A stretch of 59,647 nt of DNA from Candidatus Flemingiibacterium sp. (GCA_045589075.1 JAZNFI010000036.1:1-59647), one strand, 5' to 3'; positions 6,456 to 34,860 are shown, counted from the stretch's first letter. The notes: generated by a model not told the origin, from the letters alone. Made by a program: numbers and translations.

Positions 6456-6527
6456 CATCTCACCCAAAGCAAAAACAACGAGGGACAAGCCCTCGTTGGT
6501 TTTGCTTGGAGCAAGCGACAGGAATCG
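6456..6527. repeat. direct repeat copy A (degenerate tRNA-Gly 3' end plus terminator)
   Basis: 71 of 72 nt are identical to 6604..6675 (one mismatch, 6520 a vs 6668 g). The offset is 148 bp. Confidence 0.95.
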
Positions 6528-6603
6528 TAACCCTAACCGCAGTGCCTTTCGGCACAGCGCGACAAGAACGCCGGTGCGTTCTTGATGTGCGTTCCCTCAT
6601 CCT

Positions 6604-6675
6604 CATCTCACCCAAAGCAAAAACAACGAGGGACAAGCCCTCGTTGGTTTTGCTTGGAGCAAGCGACGGGAATCG
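6604..6675. repeat. direct repeat copy B (3' 21 nt of the functional tRNA-Gly plus its terminator)
   Basis: Same 72-nt string as 6456..6527. It overlaps the real tRNA at 6655..6675. Confidence 0.95.
6611..6654 (-). terminator. intrinsic terminator of tRNA-Gly
   Basis: Minus strand reads CAACGAGGG-cttg-CCCTCGTTG followed by TTTTTGCTTT, directly after the CCA end. Confidence 0.8.
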
Positions 6676-6728
6676 AACCCGCACAGTCAGCTTGGGAAGC
6701 TGAAGTTCTGCCACTAAACTACGCCTGC
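6655..6728 (-). tRNA. tRNA-Gly (anticodon CCC)
   Basis: Minus strand GCAGGCGTAGTTTAGTGGCAGAACTTCAGCTTCCCAAGCTGACTGTGCGGGTTCGATTCCCGTCGCTTGCTCCA is 74 nt. The 7-bp acceptor stem has one G-U pair. Anticodon arm is TCAGC/TTCCCAA/GCTGA, the T-loop is GGTTCGATTCC, and CCA is encoded. Confidence 0.93.
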
Positions 6729-27938: not shown

Positions 27939-28061
27939 TTTTCTATTACCCTTCCGTAATTGAATATATTACTGCCGGTAAGACTTTTTGTGTCTGTTTG
28001 TTATCTTATATTGCACAAAACCGCAAACAAATCTACATTAATTCCTAAATAATGAGACACA

Positions 28062-28194
28062 ACCGCTGAAGTACTGCGTTTTCATCTGGGGAAAATGCAA
28101 TAAATCTCTCCTACTACAAACTCCATCAGCATAAGTCTGACCCTGTTCAGCTTTATGTATTCAGGGATGGTTTGTCATAGAATATTGTCACGAA
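28062..28194 (-). pseudogene. decayed remnant of the dnaE C-terminal ~45 codons
   Basis: Minus strand reads FVTIFYDKPSLNT*..KLNRVRLMLMEFVVGEIYCIFPR*. The intact dnaE end reads VEVIFYDKSSSEYKKLNGVGLVLTDFVVAELRGILGDENVVLR*. The remnant carries three stops and at least one 1-nt indel. Confidence 0.85.
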
Positions 28195-29955
28195 TTAAAG
28201 ATCAAGGAAGTCGATTTTCAGAAGTCCAAGCCTCGATACGGCGTCTGTCTCAAACTGCGTCACAACAACGCCGTTATTTACGGCAAGCGGAACATATTCG
28301 TACACCGGACGGTCGGCAATAACAATTCCCGACGCGTGGGTAGATGTACGGCGAGGCATACCCTCAAATCGCTTAGCAATGGAAATAAGCATTTTCACCT
28401 TCGGTGAACTCTCGTACATTTCCCGAAGCTCATTACTTAATTCAAGTGCTGCATCAATGGTCACAGCATCTCCGCTAGGAATTAATTTTACAACCGAATC
28501 GATCACGTCATCGGGCAAGACAAGTGCTCGTCCCACACTTCTTATCGCCTCTATTGAATCCATTCTTTCAAAGGACATGATCCGAGCAACATGCTCATAT
28601 CCGTATCTGCGGCGAGCATACTCCATTACCTCAACACACCGATTACAATCAAATTCTATACCAAATCTCGGCATAACGTTATGCTCTAAATCTAAAAAGC
28701 CTTCAAACGCCAGTTCGGAATCTATAGGGTCAATGTCAGTTATTCCGATGAGAAAAGCCACAAGACTTCCCCCGGCCGAGTCTTTGCCACATCCCACGGA
28801 GATTCCGGTTACTTTGGCATAACTCACAAAATCCTGAACTATCAGAAAATAGTCGGAATATCCCTTATGGGTTATATCGCCAAGCTCACGCTCAAGTCTG
28901 TCAAGGTACTCCTTTTCGGGGTGCTTGTCTGTATATTGTATACGCCCCGACGCAAGGTAACGGGTAAGTCCCTCTCTCGCAAGTCTGGCAAGAAAGACTT
29001 CGGAGGCCGAGCCGTCAGAAGTAGCAAATGCAGGATGATGGAGAGTTGAAAAATCAAAATCGAAATTGCACTTTTCAGCAATCCGCGCTGTATTTTCTAT
29101 GGGGCTCCCAAGTTCCTCTGAATCGAGATAAGAAAACAGCTCATGCATCTCCTCTGTGCTCTTATTGTATGCTTCATCAATGTCTATGGAATAGTTTCCG
29201 AACAGCTCATGAATTTCATCTGTGCTCTTACTGTATAAATCATCAAGGTTCGTGGGGAATTTGACACAGACAACATTATTTGTCTGGATGGCACCTGACA
29301 CAAGCGAAGTAGCTACATCACTTCTGTGCAAACGATGTCCGTCATTTGTGGCAACAAGCGGAATTTTCAACTCCCTCGAAAGCTTGACAATCTCAATATT
29401 CAGTGCCTTTTCATCGGGGTGGTTGTGATCCATGATCTCAAGGTAATAATCGTCTCCGAAAATCTCCTTCATTCTCTTGGCGTGACTGCGTGCACGTTGG
29501 TAGTCGCCTTCATCAATGGCTTTCGAAACATATCCCGCAGGACATGCAGAAAGGGCAATAAGACCTTCATGATGGGAAGCCAGAAGATCCATATCAATCC
29601 TTGGCTTGAAGCAATAGCCCTCGGTATAAGCTGCTGACATGATTTTGATAAGATTTTTGTATCCAACCTCATTTTTACACAAAAGTATGAGATGATAGCT
29701 TCCTCTGTATTTTCCCGGATCATCACGGTCGAAGCGGGTCTGCTTTGCAAGATAAGGCTCACTTCCGATTATCGGCTTGATACCCTCTTTCTTACAAGCA
29801 TCATAGAAATCCACCGCTCCAAACATAACCCCGTGTTCGGTAAGTGCTAAGGCGCTTTGACCGCATTCCTTTGCTCGCTTCGGTATTCCTGATACTGGGC
29901 TGATAGCATCACACAAACTGTATTCGCTGTGAGTATGAAGATGTACAAAATCCAT
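28195..29955 (-). CDS. DnaE N-terminal paralogue fragment (PHP-palm-thumb), predicted polymerase-inactive
   Basis: 586-aa open frame colinear with residues 1 to about 565 of the adjacent dnaE. Strong RBS aaaggagg. PHP motifs are kept, but PDFDIDF has become PRFGIEF. Confidence 0.8.
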   Translation of the reverse strand: MDFVHLHTHSEYSLCDAISPVSGIPKRAKECGQSALALTEHGVMFGAVDFYDACKKEGIKPIIGSEPYLAKQTRFDRDDPGKYRGSYHLILLCKNEVGYKNLIKIMSAAYTEGYCFKPRIDMDLLASHHEGLIALSACPAGYVSKAIDEGDYQRARSHAKRMKEIFGDDYYLEIMDHNHPDEKALNIEIVKLSRELKIPLVATNDGHRLHRSDVATSLVSGAIQTNNVVCVKFPTNLDDLYSKSTDEIHELFGNYSIDIDEAYNKSTEEMHELFSYLDSEELGSPIENTARIAEKCNFDFDFSTLHHPAFATSDGSASEVFLARLAREGLTRYLASGRIQYTDKHPEKEYLDRLERELGDITHKGYSDYFLIVQDFVSYAKVTGISVGCGKDSAGGSLVAFLIGITDIDPIDSELAFEGFLDLEHNVMPRFGIEFDCNRCVEVMEYARRRYGYEHVARIMSFERMDSIEAIRSVGRALVLPDDVIDSVVKLIPSGDAVTIDAALELSNELREMYESSPKVKMLISIAKRFEGMPRRTSTHASGIVIADRPVYEYVPLAVNNGVVVTQFETDAVSRLGLLKIDFLDL

Positions 29956-30168
29956 TCTAGGTCCTCCTTTTTGCAGAAAAGTTCAGATAATATTTCATCT
30001 TCCCCTTATGCCATTAACTATATCCTTTGATTTGTGACTACCCCCGTTTTTCTTCGGGAGATTAATATATGAAAGCGTGCTGTAACAGCGCCGCGTCCAT
30101 ATTTCCAAGTCATATTTTAGCACAAAATTACAAACAAATCTATAATAAATCGTAAACATTGAAAACGA

Positions 30169-33100
30169 TTACCGAAGTACTACATTTTCATCTCCGAGAA
30201 TACCGCGAAGCTCTGCTACTACAAAGTCCGTCAATACAAGTCCGACTCCGTTCAGTTTTTTGTATTCCGACGAGGATTTGTCATAGAATATGACCTCCAC
30301 AGTGCCGTCGCAGAAGATATATACGAGATTTTCAGCTTTTTTGAATGCTCTGTTGCTGTCCTCCATGCTTTCCACGCGCAGATATACCTTGGAAAACGTT
30401 TTCGTCTGCATCGTCTTGGATTTTACGGTTGACGATGGCGGCATCTGACTATTTCCGATAACGGATGGCGGCGGAGTTCGTCCGCTGACGCGGTAAACCG
30501 TAGTTTTGCCGTTTACAGAATCTCCATTTTGGGGTGACTCTGACTGCTCCGTCAGGTTCTGACCGGATTTATTCAAGTTTCCGTCCACTGTGGAGGTTCC
30601 ACCAGATAATTTTTTTATATCCGGCATCTGTGAGCCCTCAGAAAAATGAGCGTTGTCATCAAGCAAGAACACATTCTGGCAGAGAATCTTGGGTTCTTCA
30701 TCATCTCTTTGAGAAATCTGCCCGGTAATGCATACCGCGGCTTCGTTTGTAAGAATATGTCCCACCGTCTCGAATGTCTTTGGAAACACCAACACTTCGA
30801 TCTCGCCGAAACGGTCCTCTACACCAATAAACGCCATCATTTCACCTTTTTTTGTATTCTTTGTCTGACGTCGATTGATGACTGCGCAAACAGTTACCGT
30901 TTGCTTGTCCAAATATATCTTATCCGTTTCCGATTCATCGGAAAATGAGGCGAGTATATCGCTGATTTTTTCATGGGGTATTCTATCTGTATGATGTGAG
31001 TAATCCTCAATCATATGTCCAGAGAAATAAATGCCCGAGCTTTCTTTTTCAAATCTCAGCTTTTCCTTAAGCGGCAGCTCGTCGATGTCGGGGTAGTTGA
31101 AGCTTTCGGCTGTTGCTCCTACATCCGTACCAAGTGAAAACATATCAAGCTGTCCGGCCACATTCACGCGAGACCGTTCCTGATAATGGTCGATTATTAA
31201 ATCATAAGCAAGCAGCAGACGGCTTCTGTAAACTCCCAGTGTATCAAATGCACCGCTCTTGATAAGCGCTTCAACCTGCCTCTTGTTCATATCAAGAGAA
31301 TACATCCGCTCAATGAAATCCTCAAAAGATGAAAACTCACGTTCGGAGCGTTCCTTCACCATTCGTTCAATAAATCCGACGCCAAGATTCTTAAGTGCAA
31401 GAAGCCCGAAGCGTATATACCGTTCCTTGCCGTGAACCACTGCTCTGAAGTCAGCGGTCGACTCATTTATGTCCGGAGGAAGCACACTTATTTTGTATCT
31501 CTGACATTCCGCCACATATTCAGCGGTCTTTGCGGCATTACCCATTACCGAGGTCAACAGAGCTGCCATATATTCGCATGGATAGTGACTCTTAAGATAA
31601 GCGGTACGGTATGACAGGATTGCATATGCCGCCGCATGGCTTTTGTTAAACGCATACGAGGCAAAGCCCGACATCTCATCGAACAGTTCGTTTGCATCGG
31701 CCTCGACCATACCATTTCCAACCGCGCCCGCAACAAACACACCACGATCCCGTTCCATGTCCTCCGCTTTCTTCTTCGCCATCATGCGCCTCACGAGATC
31801 AGCACGTCCCAGGGTATATCCCGCAACACTTACGCAAACCTGCATTACCTGCTCCTGATACACCATACAGCCGTAGGTAACATCAAGAATAGGAGCCAAA
31901 AGCGGCGTTTTGTAGTTTATCTTGTCCCTGTTCAGTCTGTTCTCTATATATTTGGGAATTGAATCCATGGGCCCGGGGCGATAGAGAGAAATAGCAGCAA
32001 TTATATCTTCAATGCAGTCGGGACGAAGCTGTGTTAACATCTGACGCATACCGCCGGATTCAAGCTGAAATATACCGTCCGTATTTCCTGAAGATATAAG
32101 GTCATATACATTTTTGTCATCGAGCGGCACGGAATCTATACAAAAATCAGGCTGGCGCTGTCTTATCTGCTTTTCCGTGTCTGAAATTATAGTTAGATAC
32201 CGAAGAGCAAGAAAGTCAAACTTCAGAAGTCCAAGTTTCGCTACTGTATCCATATCAAACTGCGTTACGGGTGCTCCTCCATTGGTAGACAGTGGAACGT
32301 ATTCGCACACCGGGCGGTCAGTAATAACCACTCCTGCTGCATGGGTAGACGAATGGCGCGGCATTCCCTCGAGTTTTCTGGCGGTGTCAATAAGCCTTTT
32401 CACCTCCGGGGAATTTTCATACAGTTCCCTAAGCTCCTTGACAGACTTCAAAGCAGTGTCAAGAGTCATATCAAGCGCACGTGGTATCAGCTTTGCAACA
32501 GTATCCGTTTCGGAATAGGACATACCTAGAGCTCTTCCAACATCCCGTACTGCTGCCCTTGCAGCCATTGTTCCAAAAGTGATAATCTGTGCAACATGAT
32601 CGTCGCCGTATCGACGGCGCACATATTCAATAACCTCATCACGACGATTGTAGCAAAAATCTATGTCAAAGTCGGGCATAGACACCCGCTCGGGATTTAA
32701 AAAGCGTTCAAAAAGCAGCTCAAAAGCAAGCGGATCAAGATCGGTAATTCCGAGAAGAAATGCCACGAGACTTCCTGCACCGGAACCTCTCCCCGGACCT
32801 ACGGGAATTCCGTGTTTTTTTGCATATCCAACGAAATCCTGAACAATGAGAAAATAATCGGCATAACCCATTCGGTTTATTACCGAAAGCTCGTATTCAA
32901 TCCTCTCAAGATACTCTTTTTCAGGATGCTTGTCCGTGTAAATGATGCGTCCCGATTTAAGTAGCCGTGAAAGTCCGTCCTCGGAAAGCTTTTTCAAATA
33001 CGCCTCGGAAGAGAGACCGTCTGGGGCAGTAAAGGCAGGAAGATAAATATTGGAAAAATCAAAATCGAAGGTACATTTTTCAGCTACTCTGACCGTGTTT

Positions 33101-33897
33101 TCAATAGGGCTACCCAGTTCTTCTTTGTCAAGATAGGAAAACAGTTCGTGCATCTGCTCTGTAGTCTTATAGTAAAACTCGTCAGTTTCAAAGCCTATCG
33201 GACGCCCGTCGGATATAACATTGTTTGTCTGTATGCAAAGAAGTATGGCTTGACTGTCAGCATCGCTTCTTGTAAGATAATGTGCATCATTTGTGGCAAC
33301 CAGAGGAATCCCCATTTCCCTTGAAAGCTTGATGATTCCGGCATTTACCGTTTTTTGCTCCTCTATGCCGTGATCCTGAAGTTCAAGATAGTAGTCATCA
33401 CCGAATATCTCTTTCATCTTTTGAGCATGGCAGCGCGCCGAATCATAATCACCCACAGCAATAGCTCTCGGGATGTATCCCGCAAGACATGCAGAAAGCG
33501 CGATGAGACCTTCATGGTGCGCGTTCAATAGCTCCATATCGATCCTTGGCTTCTGATAAAACCCCTCGGTAAATGATGCAGTCACAAGCTTAATAAGATT
33601 TTTATATCCAATTTCATTTTTACATAATAAAACAAGATGATTGCTGCCGCTGTCCTCGCTGTAGTCGCGGTCAAAGCGAGTACGCTTTGAAAGATAGACC
33701 TCGCACCCGATTATCGGCTTGACACCTTCTTTTTTACAGGCATTATAGAAAGCCACCGCGCCAAACATAACGCCGTGGTCGGTGAGTGCGACTGCGCTGT
33801 GACCACATTCCTTGGCGCGCTTCGGTATTTCTGATATGCGGCAAGCACCGTCAAGCAAGCTGTATTCGCTGTGAAGGTGAAGGTGTACAAAATCCAT
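30169..33897 (-). CDS. dnaE: DNA polymerase III subunit alpha
   Basis: PHP start MDFVHLHLHSEYS, GPGRGSGAGS, catalytic PDFDIDF, fingers, OB region and a C-terminal extension. I take the ATG at 33897 (aaagagg 6 nt upstream) rather than 33921. Confidence 0.97.
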   Translation of the reverse strand: MDFVHLHLHSEYSLLDGACRISEIPKRAKECGHSAVALTDHGVMFGAVAFYNACKKEGVKPIIGCEVYLSKRTRFDRDYSEDSGSNHLVLLCKNEIGYKNLIKLVTASFTEGFYQKPRIDMELLNAHHEGLIALSACLAGYIPRAIAVGDYDSARCHAQKMKEIFGDDYYLELQDHGIEEQKTVNAGIIKLSREMGIPLVATNDAHYLTRSDADSQAILLCIQTNNVISDGRPIGFETDEFYYKTTEQMHELFSYLDKEELGSPIENTVRVAEKCTFDFDFSNIYLPAFTAPDGLSSEAYLKKLSEDGLSRLLKSGRIIYTDKHPEKEYLERIEYELSVINRMGYADYFLIVQDFVGYAKKHGIPVGPGRGSGAGSLVAFLLGITDLDPLAFELLFERFLNPERVSMPDFDIDFCYNRRDEVIEYVRRRYGDDHVAQIITFGTMAARAAVRDVGRALGMSYSETDTVAKLIPRALDMTLDTALKSVKELRELYENSPEVKRLIDTARKLEGMPRHSSTHAAGVVITDRPVCEYVPLSTNGGAPVTQFDMDTVAKLGLLKFDFLALRYLTIISDTEKQIRQRQPDFCIDSVPLDDKNVYDLISSGNTDGIFQLESGGMRQMLTQLRPDCIEDIIAAISLYRPGPMDSIPKYIENRLNRDKINYKTPLLAPILDVTYGCMVYQEQVMQVCVSVAGYTLGRADLVRRMMAKKKAEDMERDRGVFVAGAVGNGMVEADANELFDEMSGFASYAFNKSHAAAYAILSYRTAYLKSHYPCEYMAALLTSVMGNAAKTAEYVAECQRYKISVLPPDINESTADFRAVVHGKERYIRFGLLALKNLGVGFIERMVKERSEREFSSFEDFIERMYSLDMNKRQVEALIKSGAFDTLGVYRSRLLLAYDLIIDHYQERSRVNVAGQLDMFSLGTDVGATAESFNYPDIDELPLKEKLRFEKESSGIYFSGHMIEDYSHHTDRIPHEKISDILASFSDESETDKIYLDKQTVTVCAVINRRQTKNTKKGEMMAFIGVEDRFGEIEVLVFPKTFETVGHILTNEAAVCITGQISQRDDEEPKILCQNVFLLDDNAHFSEGSQMPDIKKLSGGTSTVDGNLNKSGQNLTEQSESPQNGDSVNGKTTVYRVSGRTPPPSVIGNSQMPPSSTVKSKTMQTKTFSKVYLRVESMEDSNRAFKKAENLVYIFCDGTVEVIFYDKSSSEYKKLNGVGLVLTDFVVAELRGILGDENVVLR

Positions 33898-33930
33898 TTT
33901 TAAGTCCTCTTTATTCTGCAAAAAACACAG

Positions 33931-34860
33931 TTACTCTTTCACTCTGTCTCTTGCACTCTCAAGTATTTTCTTTAACCTGTGATTGACTCCCGATTTTGTT
34001 ATGGGGGGCTGGTGCAGGGCGGCAAGCTGCGACAGCGTTGCATCCGGATTGTCAAGACGCAGACGTGCAGTTGCCTTTAATTCCTCCGGAAGGATTTCTA
34101 TTTTCCCACTCGCCTCCAGCGACTTTATGGCGGCTATCTGATCGCCTGCCGCGGCAACGGTCTTGCCAATGTTGGCAAGCTCGCTGTTAGCAAGACGATT
34201 GGCATCGGAGCGAAGCTCCTTTTCTATTTTTGTATTCATAACGGTAAAGGCAGCGTTTGTAGCACCAACATAAGCCAAAAAATTTTCAATGCTTGCGCTG
34301 TCCTTGTAATACACAACATACTCGTTTTTGCGAGTCATATGCTTTGGCTCAAGCCCCACACCTGTAAGTATGTGCGCTGCTCCTGCGGCAAAAGCCTCGG
34401 AGGTAAAGCTTATCTCAAGGTGATAACTCTTGACAGGATCGGTAACTGTGCCGGAAGACATGAACATTCCTCGAATAAACGCCTGTGTACATTGCGGACA
34501 TTTAAAAACTTCTTCAATAACTCTCGACTCATCGTCATCGTCCGTATAGCGAAAGCCACGAAAAAGACGTTCAAGCTCGCGATAGGGTGATATAGTTATT
34601 TTACAGCTCCGTCTCTCGTCAGCGTCCCCGCTTTTCTTTTCCGTAATATACATACTTGCTTCCACCGAGTAAAGCTCACGAAGCCGTTTAACCGTCAACT
34701 CCGCAAGGGGAACGCAGGCGGTGATAAGTTTTATTCTGGTGTACGAAAAAAGTCCTGCACTGTATAATATCCCGTAAATCAGTGATCGGCGACAGCAATC
34801 GCGCTTTATTGTCTCCGACGCCGACGCAAGTCCGGATTTTGTTTCATGTGCGAATGACAT
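33931..34860 (-). CDS. whiA: DNA-binding protein WhiA
   Basis: 309 aa with a degenerate LAGLIDADG-type N-terminal domain and a C-terminal HTH (LSQLAALHQPPITKSGVNHRLKKI). Confidence 0.93.
   Translation of the reverse strand: MSFAHETKSGLASASETIKRDCCRRSLIYGILYSAGLFSYTRIKLITACVPLAELTVKRLRELYSVEASMYITEKKSGDADERRSCKITISPYRELERLFRGFRYTDDDDESRVIEEVFKCPQCTQAFIRGMFMSSGTVTDPVKSYHLEISFTSEAFAAGAAHILTGVGLEPKHMTRKNEYVVYYKDSASIENFLAYVGATNAAFTVMNTKIEKELRSDANRLANSELANIGKTVAAAGDQIAAIKSLEASGKIEILPEELKATARLRLDNPDATLSQLAALHQPPITKSGVNHRLKKILESARDRVKE

Follow-up and report, generated by a model that had tools for sequence, protein, structure and literature searches.

Can the N-terminal part of a replicative DNA polymerase be kept as a protein of its own after its polymerase centre has been destroyed? 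This question is raised by a contig of 59,647 nucleotides (nt) from an uncultured Clostridia bacterium, Candidatus Flemingiibacterium sp. This single contig is the object of our analysis and is referred to as the window in the following. Here the gene dnaE, coding for the alpha subunit of DNA polymerase III (Pol III), is followed on the same strand, 213 nt downstream, by an open reading frame (ORF) of 586 codons which resembles the N-terminal part of DnaE and which we call the fragment. According to the sequence comparisons described below, the fragment has lost the catalytic residues of the polymerase, its frame is open and its PHP metal site is kept. On these grounds we favor, with moderate confidence, the reading that the fragment is a retained and translated, polymerase-dead protein composed of the PHP, palm and thumb portions of DnaE, which would either use its PHP metal centre or serve as a module for binding.

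Relation of the fragment to DnaE

The two genes and the parts of the fragment on which this reading depends are located as follows.

30169..33897, minus strand: full-length dnaE of the clostridial DnaE1 type, 1242 amino acids (aa), the parent copy, with PHP, polymerase NTPase, fingers, HhH and OB parts (from the ORF list)
28195..29955, minus strand: fragment ORF, corresponding in its 586 aa to the PHP, palm and thumb portions of DnaE (residues 1-565), frame intact, polymerase centre destroyed
29425..29943, minus strand: core of the PHP domain, fragment residues 5-177 (Pfam, 186 bits versus 196.5 in DnaE)
29119..29244, minus strand: in-frame tandem duplication of 22 codons (66 nt) at the end of the PHP domain, found in the fragment only (..Y.KST[DE]E.HELF.. 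twice)
28204..28992, minus strand: polymerase NTPase (palm/thumb) domain, fragment residues 322-584 (Pfam PF07733, 246.9 bits versus 354.6 in DnaE)
28765..28794, minus strand: degenerate dNTP-binding loop GCGKDSAGGS (GPGRGSGAGS in DnaE)
28651..28671, minus strand: dead catalytic motif PRFGIEF (PDFDIDF in DnaE), aligning with MPDIDTDF of Taq

In a BLASTP comparison with DnaE, 354 of the 586 residues of the fragment are identical (60%; 73% positives), and residues 1-586 run colinear with DnaE residues 1-565. The alignment contains one gap of a single residue and one of 20 residues, the latter being accounted for by the 22-codon duplication. At the nucleotide level the identity is 68% across the 565 aligned codons, with 75, 79 and 50% at codon positions 1, 2 and 3, respectively. 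A preliminary description of the locus had given the same two ORFs and the same colinearity, which the ORF list and BLASTP reproduce, and had estimated the identity at about 60-75%, a range that holds both measured values. The dnaE ORF itself extends to a TTG at 33921; the protein collection holds exactly the 1242-aa form starting at ATG.

DnaE of the window comprises the Pfam domains PF02811, PF07733, PF17657, PF14579 and PF01336, of which only the first two are present in the fragment. The fragment ends where the Pfam finger domain starts in DnaE (residue 568), as had been supposed from inspection alone. Compared to E. coli alpha it aligns with residues 6-559, and the end of this alignment at residue ~559 is what we take, from the 2HNH structure, to be the boundary between palm and fingers.

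An AlphaFold2 model of the fragment, computed with an alignment of 72 sequences, reaches a predicted local distance difference test score (pLDDT) of 89.9 and a predicted template modelling score (pTM) of 0.89. The pLDDT is low only at residues 231-260 (~55), which correspond to the internal duplication. Foldseek matches the model to Pol III alpha of Taq, M. tuberculosis and E. coli, with query-based template modelling scores (TMq) of 0.83-0.88.

Loss of the polymerase centre

To compare the fragment residue by residue we used the same 72-sequence alignment, in which the fragment itself is included. Hereby, the fragment alone departs at three positions of the catalytic motif (D430R, D432G and D434E), so that PDFDIDF has become PRFGIEF. 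Likewise, P389C, R391K, G392D and A395G in the dNTP-binding loop are seen in the fragment alone and are invariant in the other 71 sequences. The third palm carboxylate is altered from QFD to QFE (E569). The three palm carboxylates presumably correspond to D401, D403 and D555 in the E. coli numbering; at these positions the fragment carries R430, G432 and E569, and it is the only one of the 72 sequences without an aspartate at the first two. The Pfam scores listed above are lower in the fragment than in DnaE for both domains, by far more so for the polymerase domain. The motif changes on which the preliminary description had based a dead polymerase are thus all confirmed (PRFGIEF, GCGKDSAGGS, QFE), and, as far as its sequence tells, the fragment cannot polymerize DNA. 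A functional C-family polymerase is ruled out by the loss of the catalytic carboxylates, of the dNTP loop and of the fingers, HhH and OB domains, only the PHP-palm-thumb fold being present.

Duplication, deletion and decay of the flanks

The fragment is bordered on both sides by remnants of the duplication from which it arose.

28066..28194, minus strand: remnant of the dnaE 3' end (~40 codons from I1203), non-coding, keeping the phase of the fragment ORF and carrying two 1-nt indels
28004..28065, minus strand: dnaE 3' flank, second copy, situated ~70-130 nt ahead of the PBP1A start, putatively promoter-like (TAGATT..TGTGCAATATAAG)
30100..30168, minus strand: dnaE 3' flank, first copy, which now precedes the fragment, TAGATT-17-TGcTAAAAT, with a putative extended -10-like site at 30114..30122
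29956..30099, minus strand: decayed 3' end of whiA and remnant of the whiA-dnaE spacer, left edge of the duplicated unit

On the downstream side, 28004..28185 matches 30110..30291 with 137 of 184 positions identical and 4 gap nt (E=1e-27). The match starts at dnaE codon 1203 and covers 40 codons and 61 nt of the 3' flank. In its raw frame this tail shows a TAA at the junction and five further stops, all of them past a 1-nt deletion; a second 1-nt indel is present as well. On the upstream side, the homology reaches beyond the start of the fragment into the decayed 3' end of whiA (blastn high-scoring segment pair 29316..30054 versus 33261..34000). The local alignment score of the whiA remnant is 32 compared to 16.8 ± 2.5 for shuffled sequences; in a MAFFT alignment, which was made in addition, it is ~58-60% identical over the whole length and thus about as old as the coding part of the fragment (the head). 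As a dnaE 3' remnant follows the fragment and a whiA remnant precedes it, the locus arose by tandem duplication of a whiA'-dnaE-flank unit and subsequent in-phase deletion of ~1.9 kb. The duplicated unit runs from the last ~100-150 nt of whiA through dnaE to ~70 nt past its stop and measures ~3.9 kb. In the downstream copy, codons ~566-1202 (~636 codons) were subsequently lost, and with them the fingers, the clamp-binding region, HhH and OB; the phase was kept and a stop stands at the junction.

A whole-gene tandem duplication followed by an in-frame internal deletion had already been proposed from inspection of the sequence. This history is borne out, with the unit now extended to the 3' end of whiA. 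The broken copy of the dnaE 3' end and its ~60 bp of flank were likewise recognized, the copy being 40 instead of ~45 codons long, and the count of three stops and at least one indel in it came close to the one given here.

Within the fragment, the cores of the two repeats of the 66-nt duplication are ~83% identical, and this internal duplication is therefore younger than the duplication of the gene.

The tail differs from dnaE evenly over the codon positions (11/40, 7/40 and 9/39), and the flank differs at 16 of 61 positions, resulting in ~24% overall. Third positions differ in 23% of cases in the tail versus 50% in the head (p=0.001), where four-fold sites also differ by 50%. The earlier assumption that head and tail are of comparable divergence does not hold, since the tail is two to three times less diverged than the synonymous sites of the head. 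A simple history of one duplication and one deletion is therefore incomplete. Either tail and flank were homogenized with dnaE at a later time, or they are constrained, or the history is a mosaic; compared to the head, the tail is of lower age or under stronger constraint. With respect to an RNA as basis for a conserved tail, Rfam gave no match and the fold z-score is -0.61; an alignment of two sequences cannot show covariation. The flank at 28004..28065 resembles the promoter region of a PBP1A gene, and relatives carry promoter-like sequence between dnaE and the PBP1A gene.

Selection or decay

Since the frame of the fragment is open and its catalytic residues are gone, the reading of a retained protein has to be weighed first of all against a plain pseudogene, in which the open frame and the residual conservation would be left over from a working dnaE and slowly decay. 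The head comprises 586 codons without a stop, and its only indels are one of 3 nt and the in-frame 66-nt tandem duplication. The 119-nt coding remnant in the tail, in contrast, carries two frameshifts; the same density predicts ~30 in the 1758-nt head, with a probability of ~1e-13 of finding none. In neutral simulations starting from the DnaE sequence, the probability of no stop is 1% at a divergence K=0.1 and below 1/2000 at K>=0.2. A neutral period long enough for the 41% replacement of invariant centre residues and for the two frameshifts of the tail should have given the head ~8-10 stops besides the ~30 frameshifts, and none is found. Disrupted frames, by which an unprocessed pseudogene is recognized, are present in the 3' tail and in the whiA remnant and absent from the head.

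A second line of evidence is free of any clock. Hereby, we considered the sites invariant in 17 DnaEs and defined the centre as residues 351-440, which include the dNTP loop and the DxD motif. Replacements at invariant sites amount to 9/62 in the PHP domain, 4/28 in residues 441-565 and 17/41 in the centre (centre versus rest, p=0.0018). Invariant and variable sites differ in replacement with p~1e-4 in the PHP domain and 4e-5 in residues 441-565; in the centre the difference is not significant. Correspondingly, the replacement rate rises with site variability in the PHP domain (15/31/32/46%) and in residues 441-565 (14/34/38/67%), but not in the centre (41/33/14/47%). In addition, the fragment branch shows single-nucleotide replacements of a more conservative kind than mutation alone would yield, with a mean BLOSUM62 score of +0.26 versus -0.46 (Monte Carlo p=0.003). 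The invariant residues of the centre have thus been replaced at about the neutral rate, and those of the PHP domain and of residues 441-565 (thumb and second palm segment) have been kept. Constraint at the protein level thus appears to have been maintained in the PHP domain and the thumb region beyond the time at which the polymerase centre lost it. A pseudogene accounts neither for the threefold lower replacement of invariants in the PHP domain and residues 441-565 compared to the centre nor for the conservative character of the replacements.

Codon models add to this picture under one assumption. Pairwise dN is 0.25-0.26 and dS is 1.2-1.8 depending on the method; four-fold sites give K~0.82 in total. 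As the Nei-Gojobori (NG86) dS of 1.83, the maximum-likelihood value of ~1.6 and the four-fold K of ~0.82 diverge, the age of the duplication is uncertain by a factor of two. In an equal-age clock, both copies are forced to the same synonymous age in the presence of an outgroup, which we judge reasonable for genomic neighbors. Under this clock, dS is ~0.8 per branch, and omega (dN/dS) amounts to 0.27 for the fragment compared to 0.05 for DnaE. Setting omega of the fragment to 1 costs 102 units of twice the log-likelihood difference (2dlnL), and three other outgroups give 97-112. Across the regions of the fragment omega is fairly uniform (~0.24-0.32).

Nine protein ligands of the PHP metal site, H7, H9, D16, H41, E66, H88, C138, D205 and H207, are all kept in the fragment, and their columns are invariant in the 72 sequences. 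They match the 'active' C-family PHP motif HHDHEH[C/H]DH, which is found in clostridial DnaE1 (PMC12926913); Clostridia typically carry PolC together with a DnaE1 with PHP of this active type (PMC12926913, PMC3919608).

Several observations weigh against a retained protein. The fragment has an omega 5-6 times that of DnaE everywhere and evolved ~6 times faster (135 versus 23 polarized replacements, 50 being ambiguous). In a three-taxon codon model without clock, omega=1 costs a 2dlnL of only 3.2, with a dS of 0.23 for the fragment, equal to the neutral divergence of the tail; because the outgroups are saturated (dS>10), this model is free to shift synonymous change to the DnaE branch and cannot apportion it between the two copies. 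The 3' tail, as described above, shows less divergence than the head does at synonymous sites. Directly beside the PHP ligands (+/-1), 6 of 10 DnaE-invariant residues have been replaced in a post hoc test (L15C, G17A, D40E, C65S, L139P and Y208R), compared to 3/43 of the other invariant PHP sites (p=6e-4), which could equally mean that PHP catalysis has been lost. The high pLDDT of the model is expected from homology and is no independent evidence of folding, although nothing in the sequence contradicts the fold. The promoter assignments for both flank copies are consensus-level guesses, and a consensus scan for promoters and terminators, in which nothing was decisive, did not flag them. Finally, the gene has been seen once, in one genome.

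Part of these points are what a pseudogene would lead one to expect. Loss of the catalytic residues and a rapidly changing protein fit with decay, as do a singleton and an altered second shell of the PHP site. The solution with omega=1 and dS=0.23 is tolerated and matches both the divergence of the tail and the 41% replacement of invariant centre residues. Indeed, the K of the tail (~0.25), the dS of this solution (0.23) and the 41% all agree, and the neutral expectation for the replacement of invariant residues at K~0.25 is ~0.4. One coherent reading of this agreement is that the polymerase centre and the tail turned neutral together at the deletion, with PHP, thumb and frame staying under selection. 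Taking the intact frame and the site patterns together, we regard a pseudogene as unlikely; selection on the head at the protein level appears supported by these comparisons. The codon-model evidence for it is conditional. The preliminary description had claimed selection on the head and asked for dN/dS: the value of 0.27 rejects 1 if both copies are of equal age, and this does not carry over to the model without clock. Its statement that all PHP motifs are retained is correct for the nine ligands and does not extend to their invariant neighbors, six of ten being replaced. As read from the alignment, the metal site is kept and its surroundings are changed.

Proposed expression of the fragment

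The fragment is preceded by a putative ribosome binding site.

29963..29969, minus strand: Shine-Dalgarno sequence AAGGAGG, 7 nt ahead of the ATG of the fragment (read from the sequence; dnaE has AAAGAGGAC at the equivalent place)

In the mechanism that we propose, the fragment would be translated from this strong Shine-Dalgarno sequence on dnaE read-through transcripts and/or on transcripts from the duplicated copy of a promoter which once served the PBP1A gene. From dnaE through the fragment to the PBP1A gene, the consensus scan found no terminator-like site on the minus strand. Apart from this, the ~60-nt dnaE 3' flank, being present twice (28004..28065 and 30100..30168), would supply the fragment and the PBP1A gene with the same upstream element.

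The same arrangement bears on a further explanation, according to which the frame has been kept for a reason other than the protein, either because translation is needed for expression of the PBP1A gene (avoidance of polarity) or because truncated PHP-palm products are toxic. The fragment adjoins an important cell-wall gene on its upstream side without an intervening minus-strand terminator-like site from dnaE through the PBP1A gene, and the fairly uniform omega across its regions is in line with such an explanation. Polarity, however, leaves unexplained why DnaE-invariant PHP and thumb sites are avoided and why replacements are conservative. Moreover, the PBP1A gene retains its own copy of the promoter-like flank directly upstream and, for this reason, need not depend on read-through. 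We therefore consider this explanation improbable.

Origin and distribution

The nearest genomes in GTDB, Oscillospiraceae metagenome-assembled genomes including 'Ca. Avispirillum', have DnaEs that are only 56-58% identical. In a tree built on 545 ungapped N-terminal columns, the fragment is sister to DnaE of the window in 200 of 200 bootstraps, with a branch several times longer. Fragment and DnaE are 62% identical, DnaE and its counterpart in the related locus L001 67%, and fragment and L001 51%. The order murB-whiA-dnaE-PBP1A is kept in the relatives L001, L003 and L034, where the PBP1A gene follows dnaE directly and a second copy is absent; in 111 related loci, no second dnaE-like place was found. 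The sister position and the single-copy synteny in relatives thus place the duplication in this lineage. The neighbors scanned with Pfam are ordinary chromosomal genes (recN-like, tyrS, murB, whiA, PBP1A and secA). An origin from a mobile element was rejected, as no mobile-element domain occurs among these neighbors and the fragment is sister to the gene of the host.

Searches for orthologues gave the following picture. Among ~15 billion proteins the fragment is a singleton at both 90% and 50% clustering. A word-indexed search of 5.8 billion clusters, the GTDB species genomes and an exact cluster look-up gave nothing closer than 51%; the word-indexed protein search listed nothing above 1019 aa and missed the 1242-aa DnaE of the window (60% identical), being apparently biased to partial proteins. 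An exhaustive HMMER search of 1.84 billion representatives returned the fragment's own 50% cluster and, as next best, 51%, and metagenome contigs searched with fragment-specific peptides (e.g. FGIEFDCN) gave no match. As DnaE, WhiA, PBP1A and a HAD protein of the same contig are also singletons, i.e. the lineage has been sampled once, the singleton status of the fragment is uninformative.

An assembly artefact, in which a metagenomic contig of this once-sampled lineage would wrongly join dnaE of two related organisms, is very improbable, given that a chimera of two working dnaE genes would keep the catalytic aspartates and would yield neither the frameshifted dnaE 3' remnant and the decayed whiA end in the right order and phase nor the internal 66-nt duplication, and that copies of 68% nucleotide identity are too unlike for an assembler to collapse or mis-join.

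Short DnaE entries of 553-700 aa were considered as parallels and rejected, since PDFDxDF is present in every entry inspected and their sequences stop at contig ends or run into out-of-frame text. Four of the DnaE calls, P0036, P0042, P0060 and P0071 (contigs of 45-167 kb), belong to one clade, measure 686-700 aa and share the end ...DLAGYSLR; two of them run on out of frame. The shared dnaE frameshift of this clade is either real or a recurrent assembly error; with its intact catalytic motif it is unrelated to the fragment.

With respect to DnaE of the window itself, residues ~1085-1180 (~30350..30650, minus strand) form a low-complexity stretch of ~90 residues rich in S, T, P, Q and N, located between OB and the last ~60 residues. 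Through this stretch the protein, at 1242 aa, is longer than most relatives (~1140-1180); L035 (1246) and L034 (1230) are similar.

Elsewhere in the window, a direct repeat of 78 nt with 97% identity is found at 6456..6533 and 6604..6680, next to a tRNA-Gly at 6655..6728 (minus strand). The repeat consists of the 3' ~26 nt of tRNA-Gly(CCC) and a hairpin downstream of it, and a degenerate tRNA-like 3' half precedes the lower copy. It may stem from the partial duplication of a tRNA, represent a tRNA pseudogene or be an att-like scar.

Proposed function and significance

In conclusion, the fragment is probably a working protein, our best guess being that a dead polymerase scaffold carries a PHP domain with phosphoesterase or nuclease activity. 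The fragment would fold as a PHP barrel braced by the catalytically dead palm-thumb scaffold and would have its activity, that of a phosphoesterase or 3'-end nuclease, at the PHP metal centre. Compared to the proofreading by DnaE, the substrate preference of the fragment has probably shifted, because the residues flanking the ligands have been preferentially replaced; with 6/10 of these invariants exchanged, an unchanged proofreading exonuclease is not the safest guess. As a fallback, the fragment may be a metal-stabilized, non-catalytic module for binding of partners.

A more specific proposal, which goes beyond the reading of a retained protein and which we put forward tentatively as possible though not likely, is that with the fragment the C family has its first counterpart of those PolX exonucleases which are polymerase-dead, namely a stand-alone PHP nuclease or phosphoesterase derived from dnaE. 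In this case the dead palm-thumb would serve as scaffold for binding of nucleic acids, the trinuclear metal site would be intact within a substrate shell that has been remodelled, and the substrates, attacked in trans, would be 3' ends of DNA or another phosphoester; the host bacterium would already have proofreading in DnaE1.

If the fragment is made and active, the PHP domain of DnaE would be releasable from the polymerase and reusable, the dead palm-thumb being kept as a scaffold. As a minimal construct provided by nature, it would then allow the chemistry of PHP to be studied without polymerization. The locus would also offer a clean and datable case of neofunctionalization versus decay, in which the selected part is directly flanked by neutral remnants (tail and whiA end) of the duplication that gave rise to it. 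This significance is limited to a single gene in a single, once-sampled lineage.

Comparison with known systems

In families X and Y, paralogues with a dead polymerase are known to serve as nucleases or scaffolds; none is known for the replicative C family. We found no described equivalent of the fragment, in agreement with what the preliminary description had claimed. Of the two large surveys of C-family polymerases, one explicitly leaves out fragments whose polymerase site is not intact (PMC3919608) and the other leaves out truncated sequences (PMC12926913), so that objects like the fragment would have escaped cataloguing.

The closest relative is DnaE1, Pol III alpha of Clostridia, with which the fragment shares the PHP-palm-thumb fold, the nine PHP ligands, 60% identity and the sister position in the tree. 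It differs from DnaE1 by a degenerate dNTP loop and by the absence of the catalytic aspartates, the fingers, the clamp-binding region, HhH and OB. Cyanobacterial split dnaE (DnaE-N plus DnaE-C, joined by a split intein; PMC3919608) likewise has an N-terminal DnaE piece as an ORF of its own. The fragment was rejected as a DnaE-N of this kind, as it has no intein domain, its ORF ends with ..KIDFLDL*, there is no ORF for a C-terminal half in the window, the break point differs and the polymerase site is dead. In E. coli alpha, the PHP domain is a structural, epsilon-binding module (PMC3666897), and the alpha-epsilon chimeras 4GX8/4GX9 illustrate that the N-terminal PHP part is usable as a separate unit. 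The E. coli PHP domain has lost its metal ligands and stays in the full-length enzyme, whereas the fragment keeps the ligands and stands alone.

ImuB and inactivated Y-family proteins (PMC12926913, PMC6511836) resemble the fragment in being paralogues kept after the loss of catalysis. ImuB-type proteins, however, belong to the Y family, occur across phyla, have ImuA and DnaE2 as partners and keep clamp-binding motifs; the fragment is without the clamp-binding region.

The likeness is greatest in kind, if not in sequence, to family X. Noncanonical family X polymerases without polymerase activity act as PHP exonucleases (PMC9226535) and, like the fragment, have lost the polymerase site and kept the PHP metal site, here beside a beta-type nucleotidyltransferase palm. 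In Thermus PolX, the polymerase core is required for PHP exonuclease activity (PMC2665239), which would rationalize why a dead palm-thumb is kept in the fragment. 'PolX-like' proteins of Actinobacteria even lack the polymerase domain (PMC12926913). The fragment may work in the manner of these proteins but does not belong to family X, as the PolX core (8-kDa, fingers, palm and thumb) followed by PHP is absent and both sequence and fold are those of the C family. In PolX the PHP is C-terminal, and the family X and PolX-like proteins form widespread families with tested activity, whereas the fragment combines a C-family fold with an N-terminal PHP and is represented by one gene.

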